The notes beneath the pieces were generated by a model that was not told the DNA's origin, did no database searches, and saw only the letters and a list, made by a program, of their open reading frames with translations. This document shows positions 1 to 17,195 of a stretch of DNA of 20,644 nucleotides, one piece after another. The position numbers and the translations under genes are program-made. The stretch comes from Nitrospirota bacterium (GTDB lineage Bacteria > Nitrospirota > UBA9217): NCBI GenBank assembly GCA_963818475.1, contig CAWFSF010000004.1, positions 1-20,644 of the forward strand, given 5' to 3'. Positions within the stretch are counted from its first letter, which is position 1, and every line of letters begins with the position of its first letter.

Positions 1-863
1 CGGACGGCTCTTTTTCATGATGATCGGCGTGAGATAGACGTCATGGGCGCCCTGCTGCATGAGCTTGTTCATCACATGCTCATAGACCTGCGGGTTCATG
101 TCGTCGATGTTCGTTTCAATGGAGATGATGTCGTCACGTCCCGCCCGTGATTCTTCTCGCCGATGAAGACGCGGAGGAGGTTCGGGACCGGCAGGTCCTT
201 GCATTCCGGCGCCGTACCCCGCGCTCATGATTGTCAGTTCCGGAATGGGGCCGAAGCGCCGGGCGAAAGTGCGTCATGATGGCGGCGCCGGTGGGAGTGG
301 TAAGCTCGCCGGTATGCCGCTCGAGTAGACGGGGACGCCCTTGAGGAGCGCCGCGGTGGCGGGCGCGGGCACCGGCAGGACGCCGTGCGCGGTGTTCACG
401 GTCCCCTCACCCACGTTGATGCGGGAGCAGTACACTCGCTCGATCCCCAGCAGGTCGAGCGCGGCGCAGGCCGCCGGCGATGTCGATGATCGAATCCACC
501 GCGCCGATTTCGTGGAAGTGGACGTCCTCGATGCTGGTGCCGTGTATGCCGGCCTCCACGGCCGCGATGCTCATGAATATGTCGCGGGCGTCTTTGTTTG
601 CCCGTGCGCTGAGTGCTGACCCGTCGATGATTTAATTATATCTTCAGGCGGCGTGCGGGATGGTGTTCTGACGCGGTGACGCTGGCCCTTGTGGCGGTGA
701 TCCCGTTTTTAACCACTTTTTCGAAGGTGATGTCATAGCCGGAAAGGGGGACGCCCGCGAGGGTCTTCCGGAGCGCGTCCGGGTCAAGGCCGGCGTCAAT
801 GAGCGATCCCAGTATCATGTCGCCGCTTACACCGGAAAAGCAGTCGAAGTAGGCGATCTTCAT
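1..863 (-). CDS. larC: Nickel pincer cofactor biosynthesis protein LarC (runs off window start; frameshifted)
   Basis: N-terminus [25 protein letters not shown]. Later frames give the [38 protein letters not shown] and [14 protein letters not shown] motifs. The ATG overlaps the larB stop. Confidence 0.93.
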
Positions 864-1622
864 GTCAGTTCTCCGCCCAGGTTGATCCTATGCGCCAGCA
901 CGCCCGCGCCGAAGCCGTTGTCGATGTTCATCACCGCCACGCCCGACGCGCAGGAGTTGAGCATGGTCAGCAGCGGGGCCAGGCCGTGGAAGCCCGCGCC
1001 GTAGCCCACGCTCGTCGGCACGGCGATCACGGGCTTGTCCACGAGGCCGCCGACGACGGAGGGGAGGGCGCCGTCCATGCCCGCGACGACGACGATGACG
1101 CGCGCGGAATCGAGGATGTCCTTCTTGCTCAGGATGCGGTGGATGCCGGCCACGCCGACGTCATACACGGTCTGGACCGTGCTGCCGAGCGTCTCGGCGG
1201 TGACCGCCGCCTCCTCGGCGACGGGGATGTCCGAGGTTCCGGCGGTCAGGACCAGGACGATGCCGCGTGGTAGGCTTCTTCTTCTCGTCGCTGCACGACG
1301 ATGGCCCGCGACGCCTTGTGATAGACCGCGCGTTTGTCGAGCTTCTTGATCGCCTTGAACACCGCGTCCGAGGCCCGCGTCGCGAGGATGTCGCTGCCCG
1401 GCCTTGAGCATGCGCTTGGTGATGCCCACGATCTGCTCCAGCGTCTTGCCTTCGCAGTAGATCACTTCGGGCATGCCGTGGCGCAGACTGGCGGTGGTGG
1501 TCGATGTGGGCATAGGCAACGTCTTCGAAAGGCAGGTGTTTGAGCCGCGTAAGCGCAGTATCAATATCCGTCTTGCCGGCGCGGACGCTTTGGAGCAGTT
1601 TGGTGAGTTCTATTTTATTCAT
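860..1622 (-). CDS. larB: Nickel pincer cofactor biosynthesis protein LarB (PurE-like carboxylase; frameshifted)
   Basis: [10 protein letters not shown]...[14 protein letters not shown] (1161..1622 frame) joins [15 protein letters not shown]...[12 protein letters not shown]...[30 protein letters not shown]...[24 protein letters not shown] (860..1564 frame). Confidence 0.95.
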
Positions 1623-1668
1623 TATTATTATCTTGGATTTGTTCGTTGATTCGAAGAAAATTTCTTAT

Positions 1669-1694
1669 TCCGCAATCCGGAATCTGCAATTGCG
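1669..1694. repeat. Degenerate heptamer tandem repeat (TCCGCAA TCCGGAA TCTGCAA)
   Basis: Read directly in the gpsA-larB intergenic region, immediately after the gpsA stop. Confidence 0.55.
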
Positions 1695-2699
1695 TCACTC
1701 CGCCCTGAGCTCCCGGCTCATCAGGTCCTTGACCGCGGTTTTCGGATCCTTGCCTTCGTACAGGAGCAGGTACACCTCTTCGACGACCGGCATTGCGACG
1801 TTGTATTTCTTCGCGAGGTTCCGTGCGGCCTTTGCGGTCTTGACGCCCTCTGCAACGGTCTTAGCCGTGCTCATGATCTCCGTCGAGCTTCTCGCCTTTG
1901 CCGAGCCGCGTGCCGAGGGTGCGGTTGCGCGAAAGACCGCCGGTGCAGGTGAGTACGAGGTCCCCCATGCCGGCAAGGCCGGAGAAAGTTGGGAGGCTGC
2001 CGCCGATGGCGGTACCGAGCCGCGCCATCTCTGCCAGGCCGCGGGTGAGGAGTGCTGCCATGGTGTTGTACCCGTAGCCCATGCCTTCGAGCACGCCTGC
2101 CGCGATGGCGACCACATTCTTGAGCGAACCGGCGAGCTCCACGCCGATGACGTCAGAATTGGTGTATACGCGGAAGTAGGGGCTGCTGAAGATCGCCTGT
2201 GTTTTTTTTGCGATGTCCGGATCGTACGCCGCGAGCGCAACAGCGGTCGGCATTTTCTGGGCGACTTCTTTCGCAAAGCTCGGGCCCGAGAGGAAACAGA
2301 GATTTTCGTGGAAGGCCGCAGGCAGGGTATCCTTGAATACCTCGGAAAGCGGCATCAGTGTTTCGATCTCTATGCCCTTGGATGCGCTGACAATGATCGC
2401 ATTCTCTGAAAGAAATGGTCCGAACTGTTTTGAAACGGCACGCGCTGTGTGGGATGGAACCACGGAAAGAATCACGGACCTGTCTGTGACAGCGGTTTCC
2501 ATGTCGGACGTTACGGCAATGGATGCGGGAAGGGTGAACCCCGGGAGATACACCCGGTTCTCTCGGGTTCTGCCGGTCTCTTCGGCAAGGTCCTTCTCGT
2601 ACATCCAGAGCGTTACGTCGTGCCCGTTGTCAGCCAAAAGCATTGCCAGGGCAGTACCCCATGCGCCGGCGCCGATCACCGCGATCTGTAGTGTTCAGA
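1695..2699 (-). CDS. gpsA: NAD(P)H-dependent glycerol-3-phosphate dehydrogenase (frameshift near 1880; start uncertain)
   Basis: IAVIGAGAWGTALA Rossmann motif, SASKGIE, LSGPSFAKEV, DVIGVELAGSLKNVVAIAAG, GLAGMGDLVLTCTGGLSRNR. The C-terminus VAEGVKTAKAA...KDLMSRELRAE lies in the adjacent frame. Confidence 0.95.
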
Positions 2700-2709
2700 A
2701 TAGTGCTGA

Positions 2710-2738
2710 ATTATAAAGGGAATGGAGGGAAGAGTCAA
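2710..2738 (-). promoter_or_regulatory. sigma70 promoter for gpsA(-larB-larC)
   Basis: Minus strand TTGACT (2738-2733), 17-nt spacer, TATAAT (2715-2710). Confidence 0.75.
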
Positions 2739-2895
2739 AAGAATTGTACGAAAACGGCAAAAACTTTTTACCACGGAAAGGGGCGAAGATGTACCACAGA
2801 GCGCACTGAGAAAAAAGGGGGAGGTAACGTCGGCTCCTGCTGGTTCGATCTTGTAGATTGAACCATACGTCAAAATGATTGAAACCGAAAGCTGC

Positions 2896-3923
2896 CTACT
2901 GGTTCGGCTCGATGATGACCTTCATGCAGCCGTCCGGTCTGGCGCCGGTCGTGAACGCTTCGCCGATTTTGTCGATGCCGAAGCGGTGCGTCACCATGTC
3001 GGTTACCGTCACGGTGTTGTGCCTGATGAGTTCGAGGGCTTGCAGATTGTCGAGGGGGGCGGCGCCGTAGCAGGTTTTGATCGTGATGTCGTCGCGCCAG
3101 AAGGGGTTGAAGTCCACGTCCACGGTCTCGCCCGGTTTGGGGACGGCGAAGAAGAGGATGGCGCCGCCTTCTTCGCTGGACATGAGCCCGGTCTTTGCCG
3201 CCGGAAGCGCGCCGGCGCAGAGGATGACCACATCGGCCAGACGGCCGTCATTGACCTTTCTGACGAAGGCGGGCACATCTTCGTTGGCAGTTATTCGTGC
3301 GTTGCTCCGAACTGCGTGCCTTTTCAAGCCGGTAGGCGCTGATATCGGTTGCGATGATCGTGCCTGCGCCCATGGCACGCGCCAGTTTGATGAGAAGCAG
3401 TCCTGCAACGCCGCTGCCGCAGACGAGCACGGTCTGGGCGGGTTTCAATGCCACGGTCCGGAGCGCCCGAACCGCGGTGGCCAGTGGTTCGATGAAGGTT
3501 GCCTGCTCAAAGGTCATGAGATCGGGGAGCACGAAGGTGCCGGTCTCAACGCTCTTGCCGGTAACGCGCAGCAGCTGTGAAAAACCGCCTGGCTCGAAGT
3601 TGTTGGTGCGCTCTGGAAGGTTGTGCAGGCGGTCTCATGGCCGGTGCGGCAGTGGTAGCAGGCATTGCAGGGCACGTGATGGGTGACGAATACGCGGTCC
3701 CCGATCTTGACGTTGGTCACGAGCTTTCCGGCCTCGACAACGATCCCGGCCGGTTCGTGGCCCAGCACCAGCGGCGCGCGCTTGATGCGGTACCACTCCA
3801 TAAGGTCCGACCCGCAGAGGCCGCAGGCCATGACCTTGACGACGATGTCGCGGTCGCCGGCTTTCGGCTCCGGACGTTCTTCCACACGGACATCGCTGTT
3901 CTTGTGTAGACACCGACTTTCAT
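2896..3923 (-). CDS. Zn-dependent medium-chain dehydrogenase/reductase, sorbitol/L-iditol dehydrogenase-like (frameshifted)
   Basis: MKVGVY...VMACGLCGSD (catalytic Zn Cys), LGHEPAG, structural Zn CNACYHC...C, EPLA, GSGVAG nucleotide-binding motif, and C-terminal MVTHRFGI...MKVIIEP. Assembled from several frames. Confidence 0.9.
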
Positions 3924-4090
3924 GTGATAGCTACCCCCCACATCACCCAGGATATAACCTTTGCCACGGATAGGGGCGGAGAGGATACGAAAATAACCGC
4001 TCCATTGATGGGAGGGGTGCGGTGGAGGGTGAGTGTGCTGTTGTCAGGTAAATTACCGGCTCCCCTGTCAAGTGGTCTTACGGCTGCGTT

Positions 4091-4970
4091 CTATTTCTTC
4101 TTCATGTCCAGATAATACTCGTACGCTTCCTTGACACTTATGTTGTCGTGCACCACCTTGCGCACGGCGCCGATCATGGCGACCGGGGATTCGGACTGGA
4201 AAATGTTCCTGCCCATATCAACGCCCGAGGCGCCCTGGTTTATGGCATCGCGCGCCATCTGCAGGGCTTCTTTTTCGGGAAGCTTTTTGCCGCCCGCGAT
4301 AACGATCGGAACCGGGCATGCCGCCGCGACCTGTTCGAATCCCGGGACGAAATACGTCTTCACGATGGAGACGCCGAGCTCCGCCAGGACGGCGCGTCGC
4401 CAGGCCGATATACCTGGCGTCGCGCACGAGCTCGGTGCCGACTGCCGTGACGCCGAGCACGGGCATGCCATAGCGCATTCCCTTGTCGACAAGTTTGGTC
4501 ATATTGTTGACCGACTGGGTCTCTATTGGCGCCGCCGATGAAGACCTGGACCGCAACGGCGCTCACGTTCATGCGAACGGCGTCTTCCATGTCCACGGCG
4601 ATGCGCTCGTCAGAGAGTTCTTTCAGGATGCTTGGCCCCCCGCTTGCGCGCATGACCACGGCGTTGGTATGCGATGGATCGATGACGGAGCGCAGGATCC
4701 CGCGCGTCAGCATCAACGCATCGGCCGAGGGGATGAGCGGCTTGATCGTGATATCGACCCGCTCGAGCCCGGTCTGTGGGGCCCTGGAAATACCCGTGAT
4801 CGAAGGCCAGCATCACGGTCTTGCCGGACCGCGGGTTTAAATATGCGCGCAAGACGGTTCTTCATGCCCCAGTCATAAGAGTTCGATCCTTTCAGGAAGA
4901 ATGCTTCGCTCTTTTGCGGGATATCGATGTAGTAATTTTTTTCCTTTTTCGAAAAATCCTGCTCTGCCAT
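4091..4970 (-). CDS. lsrF: LsrF-family 3-hydroxy-5-phosphonooxypentane-2,4-dione thiolase (class I aldolase fold; frameshifted)
   Basis: [84 protein letters not shown] and [23 protein letters not shown] precedes the ATG at 4970. Confidence 0.92.
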
Positions 4971-5008
4971 GAGAAACCTCCTTGCGGCTAATGGGTAAAT
5001 AGGTTTAT

Positions 5009-5037
5009 AATCTAATGCAAGCTGCATGATAAATCAA
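5009..5037 (-). promoter_or_regulatory. Putative sigma70 promoter of lsrF, with a palindrome in the spacer
   Basis: TTGATT-17 nt-TAGATT on the minus strand. ATGCA-AGC-TGCAT dyad at 5015-5027. Confidence 0.45.
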
Positions 5038-5102
5038 GGGGAAAATGGCCGGTGTCGGACGGATGCAGACGCTGCAGGCGGATGAAAGGGGAACGATAGG
5101 CC

Positions 5103-5577
5103 GTGTTGTTCAATGAACGACGTGACGAGGGCTCTACGCTGAACCTGGCCGACGAATGCGTCGCCTGTTTCAGGAAGGGGATAAACTGTACGCAGGCCGT
5201 CGTGTCCACCTACGGCCCCCAACTCGGACTTGGCAAGGAAAAGGCGCTCAAGGTCGCTGCTGCCTTTGGTTCGGGCATGGGCATGGGAGAGACCTGCGGC
5301 GCCGTGACCGGCGCGCTGATGGTCATCGGGTTGAAGCATTCCAAAGTTTCCGGGATCAGGCTGCTTTCAAGGGACAGGACCGAGGACGTGGCCCATGAAT
5401 TCGTGGAGCGGTTCAAAGCCCTGCACGGGACGGTGGTCTGCAGGGAATCTGCTGGGATGCGACGTGACCACGCCGGAAGGGCTGAAAACGGCAAAACAGG
5501 AAAAACATTTTAAAAAGCGCTGTCCCGAGTATGTGAAGGATGCCGCTCTGATACTGGAAGAGATTTTGAAGGATTAG
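5103..5577 (+). CDS. C-GCAxxG-C-C family putative redox-active protein (frameshift near 5450; start uncertain)
   Basis: GINCTQAV, AFGSGMGMGETCGAVTGA, VVCRE-LLG and KRCPEYVKDAALILE give four conserved Cys in family spacing. Confidence 0.88.
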
Positions 5578-5589
5578 GAATCGGGGGCA

Positions 5590-5627
5590 GGCTGAAGGTT
5601 GAAGGGTAGATGTAGCAGCCTTCAGCC
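5590..5627. repeat. Hairpin built from CTGAAGG-type heptamers between convergent genes (possible terminator)
   Basis: GGCTGAAGGTTG pairs with CAGCCTTCAGCC. Confidence 0.6.
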
Positions 5628-5641
5628 GAATACCTGAGCTT

Positions 5642-5857
5642 CTATTTCTTTATCAGCGTTACAACGCCTTTTGCGATCAGCAGCGCCCAGGGCGTGCCAT
5701 GCAGCACGAGATCGAACCAGTCGATGGGCCTCACCAGCTGGCCCTTTGACAGCATCTGCAGCTTCTCCCAGATGTGGGGCGGTGAAAAGGGCGCAAGCCC
5801 CAGCGTCAGGCAGGCAAGAATGAGCAAGCTCCACGGCATTTTCGAAATGAATTCCAT
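5642..5857 (-). CDS. Small conserved membrane protein (71 aa; homologues often auto-annotated as 'RND transporter')
   Basis: MEFISKMPWSLLILACLTLGLAPFSPPHIWEKLQML...IDWFDLVLHGTPW, with two hydrophobic segments. GGAGG SD precedes the ATG at 5857. Confidence 0.8.
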   Translation of the reverse strand: MEFISKMPWSLLILACLTLGLAPFSPPHIWEKLQMLSKGQLVRPIDWFDLVLHGTPWALLIAKGVVTLIKK

Positions 5858-5936
5858 ATAGTGAACCTCCGTCCTGAGAAGACTATACCATTTTTTCATC
5901 GTGAATTTCGAATTTTTAAATACGGAGGAACGATTC

Positions 5937-9040: not shown

Positions 9041-10870
<1,830 letters not shown>

Positions 10871-10972
10871 TCTGTTTTGTCCTTTTTTACCACGAAGTGC
10901 AGGTCGCGCAGGAAGAAGTTCTTGGTGACGTGGGGTTCCGTGGAACGAAATGGATTCTGTATGAAGCTGGGC

Positions 10973-11002
10973 ATAATACCCTGTGAGGGTACGATTTGTC
11001 AA
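10973..11002 (-). promoter_or_regulatory. Putative sigma70 promoter of typA
   Basis: TTGACA-18 nt-TATTAT. Confidence 0.55.
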
Positions 11003-11131
11003 TGGAATAATAATGGAAATTCCCGCTTTTTCCCGGTTTCGATAAAAGTCTGGTATGCTTAGGCCAGGATCGAAATCGCCCCTGCAGCCGGACGGGTGCA
11101 GATTATTTCATTCTTTATGTGGAGGATACGC

Positions 11132-11969
11132 ATGAAATTCATGAACAAGATGAAGCAGTTTTCATTGCTGATCGTAGCATGCTCGCTGGTGTTCGGAGTT
11201 TCGGATGTCCATGCCCTTATGCAGGGCGATATGGAGGTCTATGGCCTCATAGAGCGCTTCACGTGGAGGGAATTTGACGACGCCGGAGGGCAGATTTTGA
11301 AGGAGTCGGGTCCCCGTTTCGGCGTGGGGGTCGCTTATGCGCACGAGTTCCCCAATCACCTGACCATGAAGCCCAGGATCGAGCTCAACGGCGGTTCTGT
11401 GGATTACGACGGACAAACACAGGCGGGAGTGCCGGCAGCCTACGACGACAAACTATTTCGGGTTCAAATTTGAGCTTGACCTGGGAGGCAGGATCAGGCC
11501 GTCGCAGAGCTTTGTTCTCGAACCCTTTGGAGGCATCGGCTTCAGGTCCTGGTTCCGGGATATTGAGGACACTGTTGCCGCGGACGGATCTTCGCTAGCC
11601 GGGTATACCGAGGACTGGAGCACGTTTTACGGACGCCTCGGGATCAGGGGAGAGCAGTCTTTGGGGCAGGTGAACAAACTGTTCCTGGAGGCAGGGGTGA
11701 AGCTGCCGTTTTACACGGAAAATTATATCGACGACGACAATGTTTCCTACGAGGAAATAACGCTCGAACCAGGCAATAAACCCTCGTTGTTCGCCGAGGC
11801 CGGTGTAAAACTGCAGTCCTTCAGGATCAGCGCCTTTTACGACAGCATGCGCTTCAAAAAATCACCAACAGTCGTGGTTTACGATCCTTCCCTGCCGGGG
11901 TATGTGGGTTATCAGCAGCCCCGGTCGGATGCGGATATGTTCGGCCTGAGGATCGGTGCTTCGTTCTAG
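11132..11969 (+). CDS. Outer-membrane beta-barrel protein (frameshift near 11440)
   Basis: Signal peptide ending VHA, alternating amphipathic strands, and C-terminal FGLRIGASF (BAM-type terminal Phe). GGAGG SD. Confidence 0.8.
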
Positions 11970-12036
11970 GGCCGAAGGTTTATCATCCGATTTAGCAATG
12001 GGATGCCGTTTTTCTCCTGCGTTCAGAAATACGCGT

Positions 12037-13413
12037 TCACTCCGGTTCCTCCAGCTTTCCAAAGGCCTTCAGGACCACTTCGGACAGCGCCGGATGGATG
12101 TGCATGCCCTTGGCAACTGACCAGAGATTGCCGTCCGCTGCCATGGCGTTCACCACCTCCTGGATCAGGATCGAGGCCTGCGGCCCGATAATGTGATACC
12201 CCAGTATCTTGCCGCTCTTCCGAAGCACCACTGCCTTGGCAAACCCTTCCCGCTCCATCATGGCCTCGCCGCGCGCCACATCGGTATACATGGCCTTGCC
12301 CACCAGCAGTTCCTTTTTGCCCATGAGCTTGATCGCCTGCGCTTCGGTAAGCCCCACCGAGGCGATCTCGGGGAAGGAGAAGACGGCATGCGGCACCGTG
12401 AGGTAGTTGATGCGCGACTTTTTCCCGTGAACGGCATTGTGCCAGGCGAGCTCCGCCTCTTCGTTCGCTGCATGGCGGAACATCTTTTTGCCGATGGCGT
12501 CGCCGAAGGACCAGATATTGCTTTTCGTGGTCTCGAAATGGTCGTCCACGACGATATAGCCGCGCTCGTTCGTCTTGACCCCCGTCTTCTCCACCTGCAG
12601 CAGGTCCGCATTCGACCTTCTTCCGGCCGCGATCAGGAGCGTCTGCGCCGCAAGCTCCATGGTCTTGCCGCCCCGTTCGCGGGCCATGACGGTGATGCCG
12701 CCGTCGCTTTTGCGCACTTCCACGGCTTCGGTGTTCGTATGGACCGTCATGCGGCGGGAGAGGGCCGTTTGCAGGAGCTCCGCTATCTCAGGCTCTTCCT
12801 CCGGCACGAGGTGCTGGTTCCGCTGGATGATCGTCACCGTGGTCCCGACGGCCTCGAAGAAATGGGCGAACTCGACCGCGATGTATCCGCCGCCGATGAT
12901 GATCATGCTCTCGGGCCGCTCGGTGAGCTGGAGCGCGCTTTCGTTCGTAAGGTAGGGGACGTCGTCGATGCCTTTTATGGGAGGGATGAGCGGTCTTGCG
13001 CCGGATGCGATGAAGATCGTTTTGCCCTTGATCGTCTGGCCGTTCACTTCGAGCGTATAGTCGCCGGTAAACCGCGCTTCGCCGAAGTAAAAATCGAAGT
13101 CCTTTGCCTTTTCGAGCGCTTCCTGGATGTGGTCGTGGCTCTTCTTGACGTTGCTTCGCATCCGGTCCATGATGGCCTTGAAATCGATTTCCTTGATCTC
13201 GGCCGTGATGCCGAACTTCTTTGCTTCGCGGATCTCCATGATGCGGTCGGCAGGGTAGACGATCAGCTTGGTCGGGATGCAGCCCACGTTCAGGCAGGTG
13301 CCGCCGACGGGCCCTTTGTCCACGAGGGCCACGGTCTTGTTGTGCTCCAGCGCGTCATTCACCAGGTTCGCGCCGGCCCCGGATCCGATGATGATCACGT
13401 CGTATTCTTTCAT
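12037..13413 (-). CDS. Class I pyridine nucleotide-disulfide oxidoreductase (dihydrolipoyl dehydrogenase / mycothione reductase-like)
   Basis: Intact ORF: YDVIIIGSGAG, GGTCLNVGCIPTK redox disulfide, IIGGGYIAVEFA, FGD, and HIHPALSE catalytic His-Glu. GAGGTG SD. Confidence 0.92.
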   Translation of the reverse strand: MKEYDVIIIGSGAGANLVNDALEHNKTVALVDKGPVGGTCLNVGCIPTKLIVYPADRIMEIREAKKFGITAEIKEIDFKAIMDRMRSNVKKSHDHIQEALEKAKDFDFYFGEARFTGDYTLEVNGQTIKGKTIFIASGARPLIPPIKGIDDVPYLTNESALQLTERPESMIIIGGGYIAVEFAHFFEAVGTTVTIIQRNQHLVPEEEPEIAELLQTALSRRMTVHTNTEAVEVRKSDGGITVMARERGGKTMELAAQTLLIAAGRRSNADLLQVEKTGVKTNERGYIVVDDHFETTKSNIWSFGDAIGKKMFRHAANEEAELAWHNAVHGKKSRINYLTVPHAVFSFPEIASVGLTEAQAIKLMGKKELLVGKAMYTDVARGEAMMEREGFAKAVVLRKSGKILGYHIIGPQASILIQEVVNAMAADGNLWSVAKGMHIHPALSEVVLKAFGKLEEPE

Positions 13414-13429
13414 GTTCACCTCTTTCTGA

Positions 13430-13504
13430 ATTGTAGCATGATTAGGAAAAGAGTCAACGCAGGCGATGCTTCACCTTGACTTATGGAGGGAATAACGATA
13501 TAAA
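13430..13504. promoter_or_regulatory. Back-to-back divergent sigma70 promoters
   Basis: Minus strand: TTGACT (13457-13452)-16 nt-TACAAT (13435-13430) with extended TG. Plus strand: TTGACT (13476-13481)-17 nt-TATAAA (13499-13504). Confidence 0.6.
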
Positions 13505-13526
13505 AAAGGTACCATTCAGGTGAATA

Positions 13527-13652
13527 GACTGAAGGCCGAAGACTGAAGGTCAAAGATAAGGCTTGTGCTCAATCACTCAAGAAAATCCTTACGTGAAAGA
13601 TCAGACATCACGTTTTACGACCTTTAGCCTTCAGTCCTACAACCTTCCACCT
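13527..13652. repeat. Inverted pair of heptamer tandem arrays
   Basis: Left arm CTGAAGG CCGAAGA CTGAAGG; right arm CCTTTAG CCTTCAG-T-CCTACAA CCTTCCA. A nested ACGTGA...TCACGT dyad lies in the spacer. Confidence 0.65.
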
Positions 13653-13671
13653 GAAGAGTCACTAAAAAACC

Positions 13672-14187
13672 ATGTTCATCAAGGTTGCAACCAAACAGCA
13701 TATCGAGGCCGTCGAAGCCCTGGCCAAAGAGATCTGGACCGAGCATTACATCCCCATCATCGGCAGAGAGCAGGTGGATTACATGCTCTCCCGGTTCCAG
13801 TCCGCGCAGGCTATTTCGGAACAGATCGCGAACGGTTATCTCTATTTCCTGATCCGGGAAGCGGGGCAGTTCATCGGATATATAAGCGTCCAGCCGAAAG
13901 AACAGGAACTGTTCTTAAGCAAGATCTATGTGCTGTCGTCTCGCCGCGGCAAGGGGTATGGCAGGAAGGCTGTCCGGTTTGTTGAAGAACTGGCGAAAGA
14001 GAAAGGCCTGGGAAAGATCGTTCTCACCGTCAACAAGAACAATACTCTCGCCATCAAAGCCTATGAGGCGATCGGATTTAGGAAAATTGAAGCTCTTGTC
14101 CAGGATATCGGCAGCGGTTTTGTCATGGACGACTATAAGATGGAAAAGGAAATAGAAGAGGAGTCAGGAGTCAGGAGTCAGGAGTAA
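13672..14187 (+). CDS. GNAT family N-acetyltransferase
   Basis: [16 protein letters not shown] acetyl-CoA motif A and [19 protein letters not shown] motif B. Confidence 0.92.
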
Positions 14188-14262
14188 GTGTGAGAAGTCA
14201 GAGTCAGCATGAAAGACCAGGGTCCAAACCTGACCCCGACCCCTGACCCCTGAACCCTGATC
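14160..14262. repeat. Inverted pair of heptamer tandem arrays between convergent GNAT and htrA
   Basis: (GGAGTCA)3-GGAGTAA at 14160-14187 and five CCTGACC-like units at 14229-14262. Confidence 0.8.
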
Positions 14263-14267
14263 CCTCT

Positions 14268-15709
<1,442 letters not shown>

Positions 15710-15773
15710 GATCTCCTCCTTATTAATAGATACAGTTGAACAAAGTTAAACGAAAAATGGAAACATTAGCTCT

Positions 15774-15905
15774 GCCACGAAGGCACGAAGACACAAAGAA
15801 CGTCTACCTCAGAAAACAGCATCTTAAAAGTTTTTGAATATTCTCGGGATTTCAGCGTTTGTTCGTGGCCACTGTGGCAAATCGTTGGTTCCAGTTTGTC
15901 CCGGT
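15774..15905. repeat. CACGAAG-type octamer array with a degenerate inverted arm
   Basis: GCCACGAAGG CACGAAGA CACAAAGA (15774-15799), then TTTGTTCGTGGCCACTGTGGC (15858-15878) and TTGGTTCCAGTTTGTCCCGG. Confidence 0.6.
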
Positions 15906-15980
15906 GAGATACTGCTAAATAACACGCCGTACTCCGTAAGTATAGCGCGCATTTAGCTGGTTGCCCAGCAGGTGCAAATA

Positions 15981-16009
15981 ATTATAAAAAAAATGATCTC
16001 CGCAGTCAA
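15981..16009 (-). promoter_or_regulatory. sigma70 promoter about 270 nt upstream of htrA
   Basis: TTGACT (16009-16004)-17 nt-TATAAT (15986-15981). Confidence 0.75.
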
Positions 16010-16033
16010 GAGGGTGAAAATGAACAGGGCGGG

Positions 16034-17110
16034 CTAGAGGGATACGGTCAGCTCCAGGCGGGCGCTGTCGAGGAAGAGGAGGTGACCTTCGACCTTGTTC
16101 AGGCGGAACAGTTCCTTGATTGCTTCGCAGTAGACCAGTACCTGGGGGCGATAGTGAGCTTTCCAGGCAGCGCTCGGTTTCGTCCGGGCGTCGATGGCCT
16201 TATAATCGATGACAAATCCGGCGTCTCCCTGGATGACCACCCGGTCCATGATGCCGCTGATGAGCGTTTGTCCGCGGCGGCAGATGAAGGGCAGTTCGGA
16301 ATAGGAGGTGTCGAGTTTCTCAAAGATCCACGCGAAGTTCGGCGTGTGGAGCATTTTTTTCAGTACCGCATCGGCGTCGGCGGCGAAGACGGCCGCACCT
16401 CAGGGCTGACAGCATGCATCTCGGGGTATTCGTCGATGATGCGGTCAAGTTAAATACGCCCGTCTTCGTATGTTCCTCAAGACAGCGGTGCAGGATGCTT
16501 CCGCGCGTAAGCGGCGATATAGCAATTCGCTCTTTTCCCGGGAGAGGCGCTCGGCGGCATCTTCCCGGTCCCGCGAAATGAGGTCAGTGGCGGTTTTCCA
16601 TTTGAGCGAGGTGGAAGAAGGAACGGGCGCGATGTTCTCCAGGATGATTTGCGCGTTGACCATTGTGCGCGTTTCTTCCTTCTGCTCCTCCTGGAAAACG
16701 CCCGCCTGCAGCACAGGAAGCATCTCTGCCTGCCACTCAGGATAGGCGGAAACCGTTACACCAGGGCCGTCCGGCTGCGACCGTCCGCGCTCACGGGGAT
16801 AGCCTGATGCAGGTAGTTGAGCCAGGCGCTCTCCTTGAACGGTTTACTGTTCTTATCCAGCGTCCCGATCATGACCAGGCAGTCCCGGGCGCGCGTCATC
16901 GCCACGTAGAGCAGGCGCTGGTGCTCCCGCTGGAACTCTGCTTCTCCTGGTCCCACAGCTTCATACAGGGGGTTGTCCCCATCCTTGACTGCCAGCCTCA
17001 TTCCGCTGCTGCTGTTCTCCACTATCGCCAGCGGGCCGGTGGTTACCGATCGCGGCTGCTGGTTCACGGCGGGCAGGAAAACGACCGGAAATTCCAGACC
17101 TTTTGCCTTG
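16034..17110 (-). CDS. 3' fragment of an AddA/UvrD-like helicase with C-terminal PD-(D/E)xK nuclease (5' part missing; frameshifted)
   Basis: KAKGLEFPVVFLP (motif V), EHQRLLYVAMTRARDCL (motif VI), and nuclease motifs SELPF, SGIMDRVV, VIDYK and QVLVY. Confidence 0.88.
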
Positions 17111-17195
17111 TTTTTGACCCGATTGACGCAGAAAAATTGGAGACCTTATCCCAGTATCCCGGGGCTGTTTCGGTCTGGTTAACAACGGTGTTCAT
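17111..17195 (-). CDS. 5' fragment of a hypothetical protein, truncated at the junction
   Basis: AGGTGA SD, then MNTVVNQTETAPGYWDKVSNFSASIGSK. Starts 2 nt after the stop of the upstream gene. Confidence 0.5.

Follow-up and report, generated by a model that had tools for sequence, protein, structure and literature searches.

An orphan LsrF-type thiolase and a zinc-dependent dehydrogenase form a conserved gene pair in Nitrospirota and may complete an aldolase-free salvage of 5′-deoxyadenosine

The DNA analysed here (the window) is a whole contig, C4, of 20,644 bases, from a Nitrospirota genome assembly (G000) of seven contigs and 4.66 Mb. Its reverse strand carries a gene for an LsrF-type thiolase with the DeoC/LacD class I aldolase fold (positions 4091..4970), followed by a gene for a zinc-dependent medium-chain dehydrogenase/reductase (MDR) enzyme that is polyol/threonine-dehydrogenase-like and has an NAD-type Rossmann fold (2896..3923). 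The thiolase gene was recognised from pieces matching PF01791 and from a tblastn match to Escherichia coli LsrF, and the dehydrogenase gene from ADH_N and ADH_zinc_N matches on its pieces. Next on the same strand is gpsA, encoding NAD(P)H-dependent glycerol-3-phosphate dehydrogenase (about 1695..2703; PF01210 and PF07479). The original prediction, of lsrF followed by a co-oriented dehydrogenase gene and then gpsA, was right as to content, order and orientation, but not in taking the genes to be intact. All three are frameshifted and none is an open frame, the longest open reading frames (ORFs) in 2896-4970 being no longer than 182 aa. Two stretches of contig C6 of the assembly are matched by C4 in diverged form (79–90% identity, many gaps), and an intact gene for a 290-aa LsrF was found on C6 (G000:C6:1795253-1796122). 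The C6 dehydrogenase gene has one frameshift (L001:10264-11293); the same gene is an intact 342-aa ORF in relatives of the same genus and in more distant ones.

The C6 LsrF protein scored 479.2 bits, against a cut-off of 297, on the NCBIfam equivalog model NF006081 (3-hydroxy-5-phosphonooxypentane-2,4-dione thiolase), with coverage of residues 1–288 of 290. The pieces of the window gene, taken alone, fell below this cut-off. In tblastn the C6 protein was 61% identical to E. coli K-12 LsrF over 291 residues, the full length. The closest solved structures were those of E. coli LsrF (382 bits), and the next family was that of Methanocaldococcus jannaschii ADH synthase (139 bits). The LsrF structure paper names the Schiff-base residue Lys203 together with Asp57 and Asp251, and a phosphate site formed by His58, Arg254 and Gly226/227/253 (E. 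coli numbering; PMC2728841). The equivalents of all of these residues are aligned and identical in the C6 protein; Asp251 is replaced by Asn in the two most distant Nitrospirota LsrF sequences. On sequence grounds we take the C6 protein to be an orthologue of E. coli LsrF, and presume that it catalyses the same reaction. LsrF is reportedly, according to a paper in PNAS in 2014, a CoA-dependent thiolase giving acetyl-CoA and dihydroxyacetone phosphate (DHAP). In the control search with NF006081 an E. coli match was seen but lay under the cut-off, although K-12 LsrF is the founding member of the family; the control genome may be without lsr, or the first-look filter may have missed the gene, and the counts given below are unaffected.

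The dehydrogenase has the ADH_N and ADH_zinc_N domains, the Cys/His/Glu/Glu catalytic zinc site, the Cys4 structural zinc site and the GxGxxG motif of the MDR family. In 78 sequences C37, H56, E57, E145, C86, C89, C92, C100, G169, G171 and G174 were at least 95% conserved. Asp193, after the Rossmann motif, is also conserved, which fits the use of NAD+, as are Arg46, His313 and Lys335. Subfamily models were scored with intact proteins from three relatives (one of the same genus as the window, L087 and L012), and no NCBIfam equivalog was reached among the Tdh, galactitol-1-phosphate 5-dehydrogenase and sorbitol dehydrogenase subfamilies scored. Tdh models were the best of the curated ones (149–193 bits; cut-offs 380 and 458), with GatD at 131–148 bits (cut-off 550) and IolM at 154–176 bits (cut-off 450). 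Sorbitol dehydrogenases are the nearest solved structures, and metagenome pipelines label the clade ‘L-iditol 2-dehydrogenase’. No second MDR dehydrogenase could be detected in the genome. MDR enzymes acting on polyols and threonine carry out their oxidation at the penultimate carbinol, any phosphate being distal as in GatD, and the product of threonine 3-dehydrogenase is likewise cleaved with CoA to acetyl-CoA.

Conservation of the pair was followed in an even sample of 251 Nitrospirota genomes, where LsrF was scored as present over the NF006081 cut-off, and in the 80 closest LsrF loci of a one-genome-per-species data set covering many phyla (64–90% identity). LsrF was present in 68 of the Nitrospirota genomes. 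Seven of these, all from one family, have a fusion of a class II aldolase with a short-chain dehydrogenase/reductase (SDR), of about 710 aa, instead of the MDR dehydrogenase; the fusion gene adjoins LsrF in four, is 2.9 kb away in one, and lies outside the stretches fetched in two. At 56 of the other 61 loci the MDR dehydrogenase gene was found on the same strand within 3 kb, and at 51 within 205 bp, with both gene orders represented. Three of the five loci without a paired dehydrogenase are at contig ends. In the cross-phylum set the dehydrogenase (42–87% identity) adjoins LsrF at 25 of the 80 loci, in Syntrophorhabdaceae, Spirochaetales, Fibrobacterota, Bacteroidota, Desulfobacterota and Bacillota. 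The linkage of the two genes, on which the original prediction depended, is therefore conserved in both data sets.

Across 23 mapped loci the genes flanking the pair vary, and in none of the 23 is the pair accompanied by a kinase, isomerase or transporter gene. The pair thus behaves as a self-contained two-gene cassette without a kinase or transporter of its own, and its substrate should be a metabolite supplied by housekeeping enzymes. Consumption of DHAP by the gpsA product had been suggested as a functional tie to the pair. This candidate was rejected as synteny by descent, since it is only in the family of the window that gpsA follows the pair, and other loci have no gpsA within 3 kb. LsrF outside lsr operons nearly always has a dehydrogenase beside it. 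The other contexts among the 80 loci include aldolase-SDR or SDR proteins (45 loci), an Rpe/LsrE-type epimerase (17) and a RuBisCO-like protein (RLP; 7), and further neighbours in other phyla are split transketolases and FGGY kinases with a 2-hydroxyacid dehydrogenase. An LsrK-like FGGY kinase (43–45% identity) occurs with LsrF at seven of the loci (L037, L044, L051, L052, L072, L080 and L094), all from Actinomycetota and Chloroflexota. Five of these seven also carry a 2-hydroxyacid dehydrogenase and none has an LsrG match; they represent another kinase-plus-dehydrogenase way to feed LsrF.

The lack of lsrK, lsrG, lsrR and lsrACDB beside the pair, noted in the original prediction, extends to the assembly as a whole. 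Queries with E. coli K-12 LsrK, LsrR, LsrB, LsrC, LsrD and LsrG gave no tblastn match at E ≤ 1e-3 in the assembly, and LsrA gave only generic ABC ATPase matches of about 30% identity. The sole FGGY kinase of the genome is GlpK-like and scored 43 bits on the LsrK model (cut-off 528), so that no complete lsrK/lsrG set was found away from the pair either, and a search of the genome for LuxS was negative too. At 91% completeness of the assembly (contamination 6.2%), gene absence is probable rather than proven. Orthology to the E. coli protein would suit the classical processing of autoinducer 2 (AI-2), in which LsrF cleaves the diketone derived from phosphorylated 4,5-dihydroxy-2,3-pentanedione after import of AI-2. 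Since neither LuxS nor any of the six Lsr proteins could be found in the genome, and no LsrG match was present at any of the 80 closest LsrF loci, this function is excluded as far as the assembly allows.

5′-Deoxyadenosine is a by-product of radical-SAM enzymes, which are abundant in anaerobes; it is inhibitory and must be removed. In the DHAP shunt, 5′-deoxyadenosine and methylthioadenosine (MTA) are degraded by MtnP, or MtnN and MtnK, followed by MtnA and the class II aldolase Ald2; the corresponding enzymes in Bacillus are DrdK, DrdI and DrdA. The genome contains the entry enzymes of this pathway. MtnA was found as pieces of 336 and 95 bits on TIGR00512, and MtnP as pieces of 146 and 126 bits on TIGR01694, each gene being interrupted by one assembly frameshift. 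There are 58 radical-SAM domain hits. No match to PF00596, the family of class II aldolases of the Ald2/DrdA type, was detected in the genome, in a search whose control was positive in 11 of 14 reference genomes. The expected combination of mtnA and mtnP without the shunt aldolase was thus observed.

The distribution of LsrF among the Nitrospirota genomes is complementary to that of class II aldolases. PF00596 was present in 137 of the 251 genomes, including 128 of the 183 that lack LsrF. Both proteins occurred together in nine genomes, seven of them of the fusion type and two with a small aldolase. Five families are mixed; their 89 genomes comprise 36 with LsrF only, 47 with an aldolase only, none with both and six with neither. 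Changes from one state to the other are seen within at least five genera, one of them that of the window. The aldolase-family proteins that alternate with LsrF include a bona fide MtnB beside MtnW and MtnD in one family and a FucA/Ald2-like protein in another. In the window's own family the alternating protein is 400–440 aa long with the aldolase domain in its C-terminal half (for example, in LsrF-negative relatives, L106:4371-5693, L107:4509-5711, L111:4895-6172, L112:5858-7063 and L113:1112-2362). Its N-terminal part of about 230 aa matched no Pfam or NCBIfam family, and in an Atlas search retrieved only class II aldolase clusters (0.87–0.90). Such an alternation would be expected from non-orthologous displacement at a step after MtnA. 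Positional replacement was also considered and rejected: the class II aldolase gene of LsrF-negative relatives is not at the LsrF locus.

Direct association with salvage genes was found in a few loci. In L074 and L095 the pair has MtnA-like neighbours. In a Bacillota operon, L087, the genes encode a ribose-type ABC transporter, MtnK (431 bits, cut-off 275), MtnA, a DeoR regulator, a split transketolase, an RLP, LsrF, an epimerase, a mutarotase, the dehydrogenase described here and a class II aldolase.

The best-supported reading, to which we give a probability of about 0.5, is that the pair encodes the last part of an aldolase-free salvage of 5′-deoxyadenosine, converting 5-deoxyribulose-1-phosphate to acetyl-CoA and DHAP. 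The gene identities, the conserved adjacency, the failure to find lsr partners in a genome that has MtnP and MtnA, and the way in which LsrF and class II aldolases complement each other are observed; from them we infer what the substrate is, which carbon is oxidised and which way the flux runs. MtnP would make 5-deoxyribose-1-phosphate from 5′-deoxyadenosine, and MtnA would isomerise it to 5-deoxyribulose-1-phosphate. The dehydrogenase, with NAD+, would then oxidise the C4 methyl-carbinol to give 3-hydroxy-2,4-pentanedione-5-phosphate, which LsrF would cleave with CoA to acetyl-CoA and DHAP. Thiolysis by LsrF would pull the unfavourable oxidation. The LsrF–dehydrogenase module would in this way fill the place of the class II aldolase, of the Ald2 or MtnB type, of related genomes. 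That MTA might be handled by the same route, through methylthioribulose-1-phosphate, is speculation.

The dehydrogenase-plus-thiolase ending would be a variant of the known DHAP-shunt type of salvage. It would have the entry enzymes MtnP and MtnA and the product DHAP in common with the shunt, but no class II aldolase was found in the genome, and the two carbons that the shunt releases as acetaldehyde would here be recovered as acetyl-CoA, with a gain of NADH. The LsrF protein is orthologous to that of the lsr operon of E. coli and Salmonella, with its active-site residues kept; the AI-2 operon, however, has LsrK, LsrG, LsrR and LsrACDB, and here the substrate would have to come from a dehydrogenase and not from a kinase and an isomerase. 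The order of reactions would resemble that of L-threonine 3-dehydrogenase (Tdh) and 2-amino-3-ketobutyrate CoA ligase (Kbl), in which an MDR zinc dehydrogenase oxidises a methyl carbinol and CoA-dependent cleavage then frees acetyl-CoA. The present dehydrogenase nevertheless scores below the Tdh cut-offs, and its partner has a Schiff-base class I aldolase fold, whereas Kbl is a pyridoxal phosphate enzyme. Clusters of LsrF with an LsrE-type epimerase and a class II aldolase–SDR fusion, the form used by the seven Nitrospirota genomes mentioned above, likewise place LsrF beside a dehydrogenase without AI-2 genes. They differ in having, in place of the MDR enzyme, an SDR-type dehydrogenase fused with an aldolase-like domain, and in their extra epimerase, RLP or transketolase genes.

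Several observations weigh against this salvage route. The substrate of the dehydrogenase, and with it oxidation at C4 of 5-deoxyribulose-1-phosphate, is deduced from sequence, and the window copy of the pair cannot be translated as written. Two Nitrospirota LsrF loci have room for the dehydrogenase gene but do not show one, and in 55 of the 251 genomes LsrF and class II aldolases are both missing. MtnA was over the cut-off in 241 genomes, and being near-universal its presence alone does not discriminate. The uncorrected Fisher p of 4e-24 for the exclusion is an overstatement, the genomes being related. Outside Nitrospirota the exclusion is not strict: a PF00596 protein was present in five of ten pair-bearing genomes, so that a clean exclusion is seen only where the aldolase family serves few further purposes. 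In the family of the window the class II aldolase is unusual and its function unproven. Finally, the linkage to mtnA that had been anticipated is rare, with MtnA-like genes in only four of the 80 LsrF loci, the MtnK–MtnA–LsrF–dehydrogenase operon of L087 being one of them.

Other substrates would lead to the same or to a similar cleavage. The dehydrogenase might oxidise C4 of a 1-deoxy-pentulose-5-phosphate, either 1-deoxyxylulose-5-phosphate (DXP) or the product of a RuBisCO-like 1,3-isomerase acting on 5-deoxyribulose-1-phosphate, and so supply LsrF with the same diketone; a 1-deoxy-pentulose-5-phosphate had already been raised as the alternative in the original prediction. DXS is present in the genome, so DXP is made; RLPs are near LsrF at the seven loci noted above, in L087 directly upstream of it, and the RLP of the present genome is 59% identical to that of L087. 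The epimerase that follows LsrF at 17 of the 80 loci would also fit. Yet an RLP orthologue was found in only 31 of the 68 LsrF-positive Nitrospirota genomes, and in the window's family it is equally present in aldolase-type genomes, so that it is not an obligatory partner. Breakdown of DXP would drain isoprenoid synthesis, and oxidation beside the CH2OP group is an unusual regiochemistry for this MDR branch. We consider this substrate unlikely. Slightly less likely again is degradation of a different phosphorylated deoxy-sugar or diketone, one with no relation to SAM by-products, for example of a 6-deoxy-hexulose-1-phosphate to lactoyl-CoA and DHAP, with the anticorrelation to aldolases a matter of lifestyle. 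The variety of sugar-phosphate contexts of LsrF elsewhere (aldolase-SDR fusions, FGGY kinases with 2-hydroxyacid dehydrogenases, split transketolases) and the lack of strict exclusion outside Nitrospirota would agree with such a role. A dedicated sugar pathway is difficult to reconcile with the 23 mapped loci, where kinase, isomerase and transporter genes accompany the pair in none, or with a genome whose only FGGY kinase is GlpK-like. The 61–90% identity of LsrF across contexts argues for one substrate, and switches between LsrF and aldolase within genera are hard to put down to lifestyle.

Thiolase-type reactions are reversible in principle, and the pair could then work in the biosynthetic direction, LsrF condensing acetyl-CoA with DHAP and the dehydrogenase reducing the product to a deoxy-pentulose phosphate. 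We regard this as very improbable: with DXS present there is no need for such a route, the Rossmann fold is of the NAD type, the condensation is uphill, and the replacement of class II aldolases would be left unexplained.

The frameshifts of the window were compared with C6 and with contigs of relatives. The window LsrF gene has four single-base insertions relative to the C6 copy, which split it into four to five frames; the dehydrogenase gene has at least four frame-breaking indels, and gpsA has 17 gaps. Summed over the three genes there are 13 or more frame-breaking indels and, as the C6 dehydrogenase gene is frameshifted as well, a decaying duplicate or a dying lineage could be envisaged for the window copy. 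The substitutions between C4 and C6 argue otherwise. At codon positions 1/2/3 they number 8/4/80 in LsrF, 10/9/58 in the N-terminal part of the dehydrogenase and 37/20/139 in gpsA, about 85% falling at third positions, which we read as purifying selection and as the pattern expected of a functional orthologue that comes from a related population. The extra bases of the window at 4391, 4524/4525, 4775 and 4842 are absent from contigs of relatives in four sediment metagenome runs, and the same contigs also differ by indels at the break points of the window dehydrogenase gene. Unrelated genes are split alike: those for BipA and an HtrA-like protein on C4, and those for MtnA, MtnP and the GlpK-like kinase on C6. 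Together with the 6.2% contamination, these results indicate that the breaks are most probably errors, the contig being poorly polished and derived from a co-binned relative, and real decay is less likely.

The single frameshifts on C6 (L101, L104 and L174) show that indel errors occur in the main contigs of the assembly too, and gene calls will be fragmented. C4 is collinear with G000:C6:1763504-1799191 in two blocks, window positions 878–5858 and 9042–17111. The blocks are separated by about 22.7 kb in C6 and by about 3.2 kb in C4, and no C6 match was found for the final 3.5 kb of the window (GC 0.42–0.46). This may be a structural difference between two co-binned populations, or C4 may be a chimeric contig. 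On either side of the genes described above the window carries a LarB-like gene of the AIR carboxylase family, downstream on the reverse strand (860..1564; PF00731), the C6 copy of which scored 292 bits on NF033503 (LarB), and a divergent gene of the C_GCAxxG_C_C family, upstream of LsrF on the forward strand (5100..5577; PF09719), which is in two frames here. A search of the window and of L001 for riboswitches or other Rfam elements near the pair gave nothing at the gathering score. Among public sequencing runs none was close to the window (shares 0.05–0.07), and no RNA run was listed with it.

RLPs were encountered in two further settings. That of the present genome (G000:C1:270181-271332; L175:5179-6333) had MtnW as its best model, at 217 bits against a cut-off of 409; the four ORFs next to it gave no NCBIfam match, and orthologues were found in 79 of the 251 Nitrospirota genomes. 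In green sulfur bacteria (Chlorobi; L041, L053, L058, L069 and L089) LsrF lies between an aldolase-SDR fusion and an RLP of the ‘Photo’ type. The function of this type is given as unassigned in a 2018 paper (PMC5893883). LsrF could be a handle on it.

A literature search, which covered sources other than subscription journals and supplements, found nothing joining LsrF to 5-deoxyribose, methylthioribulose or an RLP, or the pentadione to deoxyribulose; supplementary gene-cluster tables of papers on the DHAP shunt and on 5-deoxyribose could presumably list such LsrF neighbours. The last enzyme of the known routes of 5′-deoxyadenosine salvage is a class II aldolase, with acetaldehyde as a product. 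If the reading given here is true, the dehydrogenase-plus-thiolase ending keeps the C2 unit as acetyl-CoA and yields NADH, and a clade of MDR enzymes so far uncharacterised would gain a function. The reading of ‘lsrF’ in environmental genomes as a mark of quorum sensing would also have to be corrected, given that 68 of 251 Nitrospirota genomes carry the gene. More broadly, and tentatively, we suggest that orphan LsrF may be the terminal enzyme, in many anaerobes, of an undescribed oxidative-thiolytic shunt, free of aldolase, for 5′-deoxyadenosine, and perhaps for MTA, rather than a quorum-quenching enzyme. Such a shunt would yield acetyl-CoA, NADH and DHAP and would have repeatedly displaced class II aldolases, and the degradation of AI-2 in enterobacteria would be a later co-option of it.

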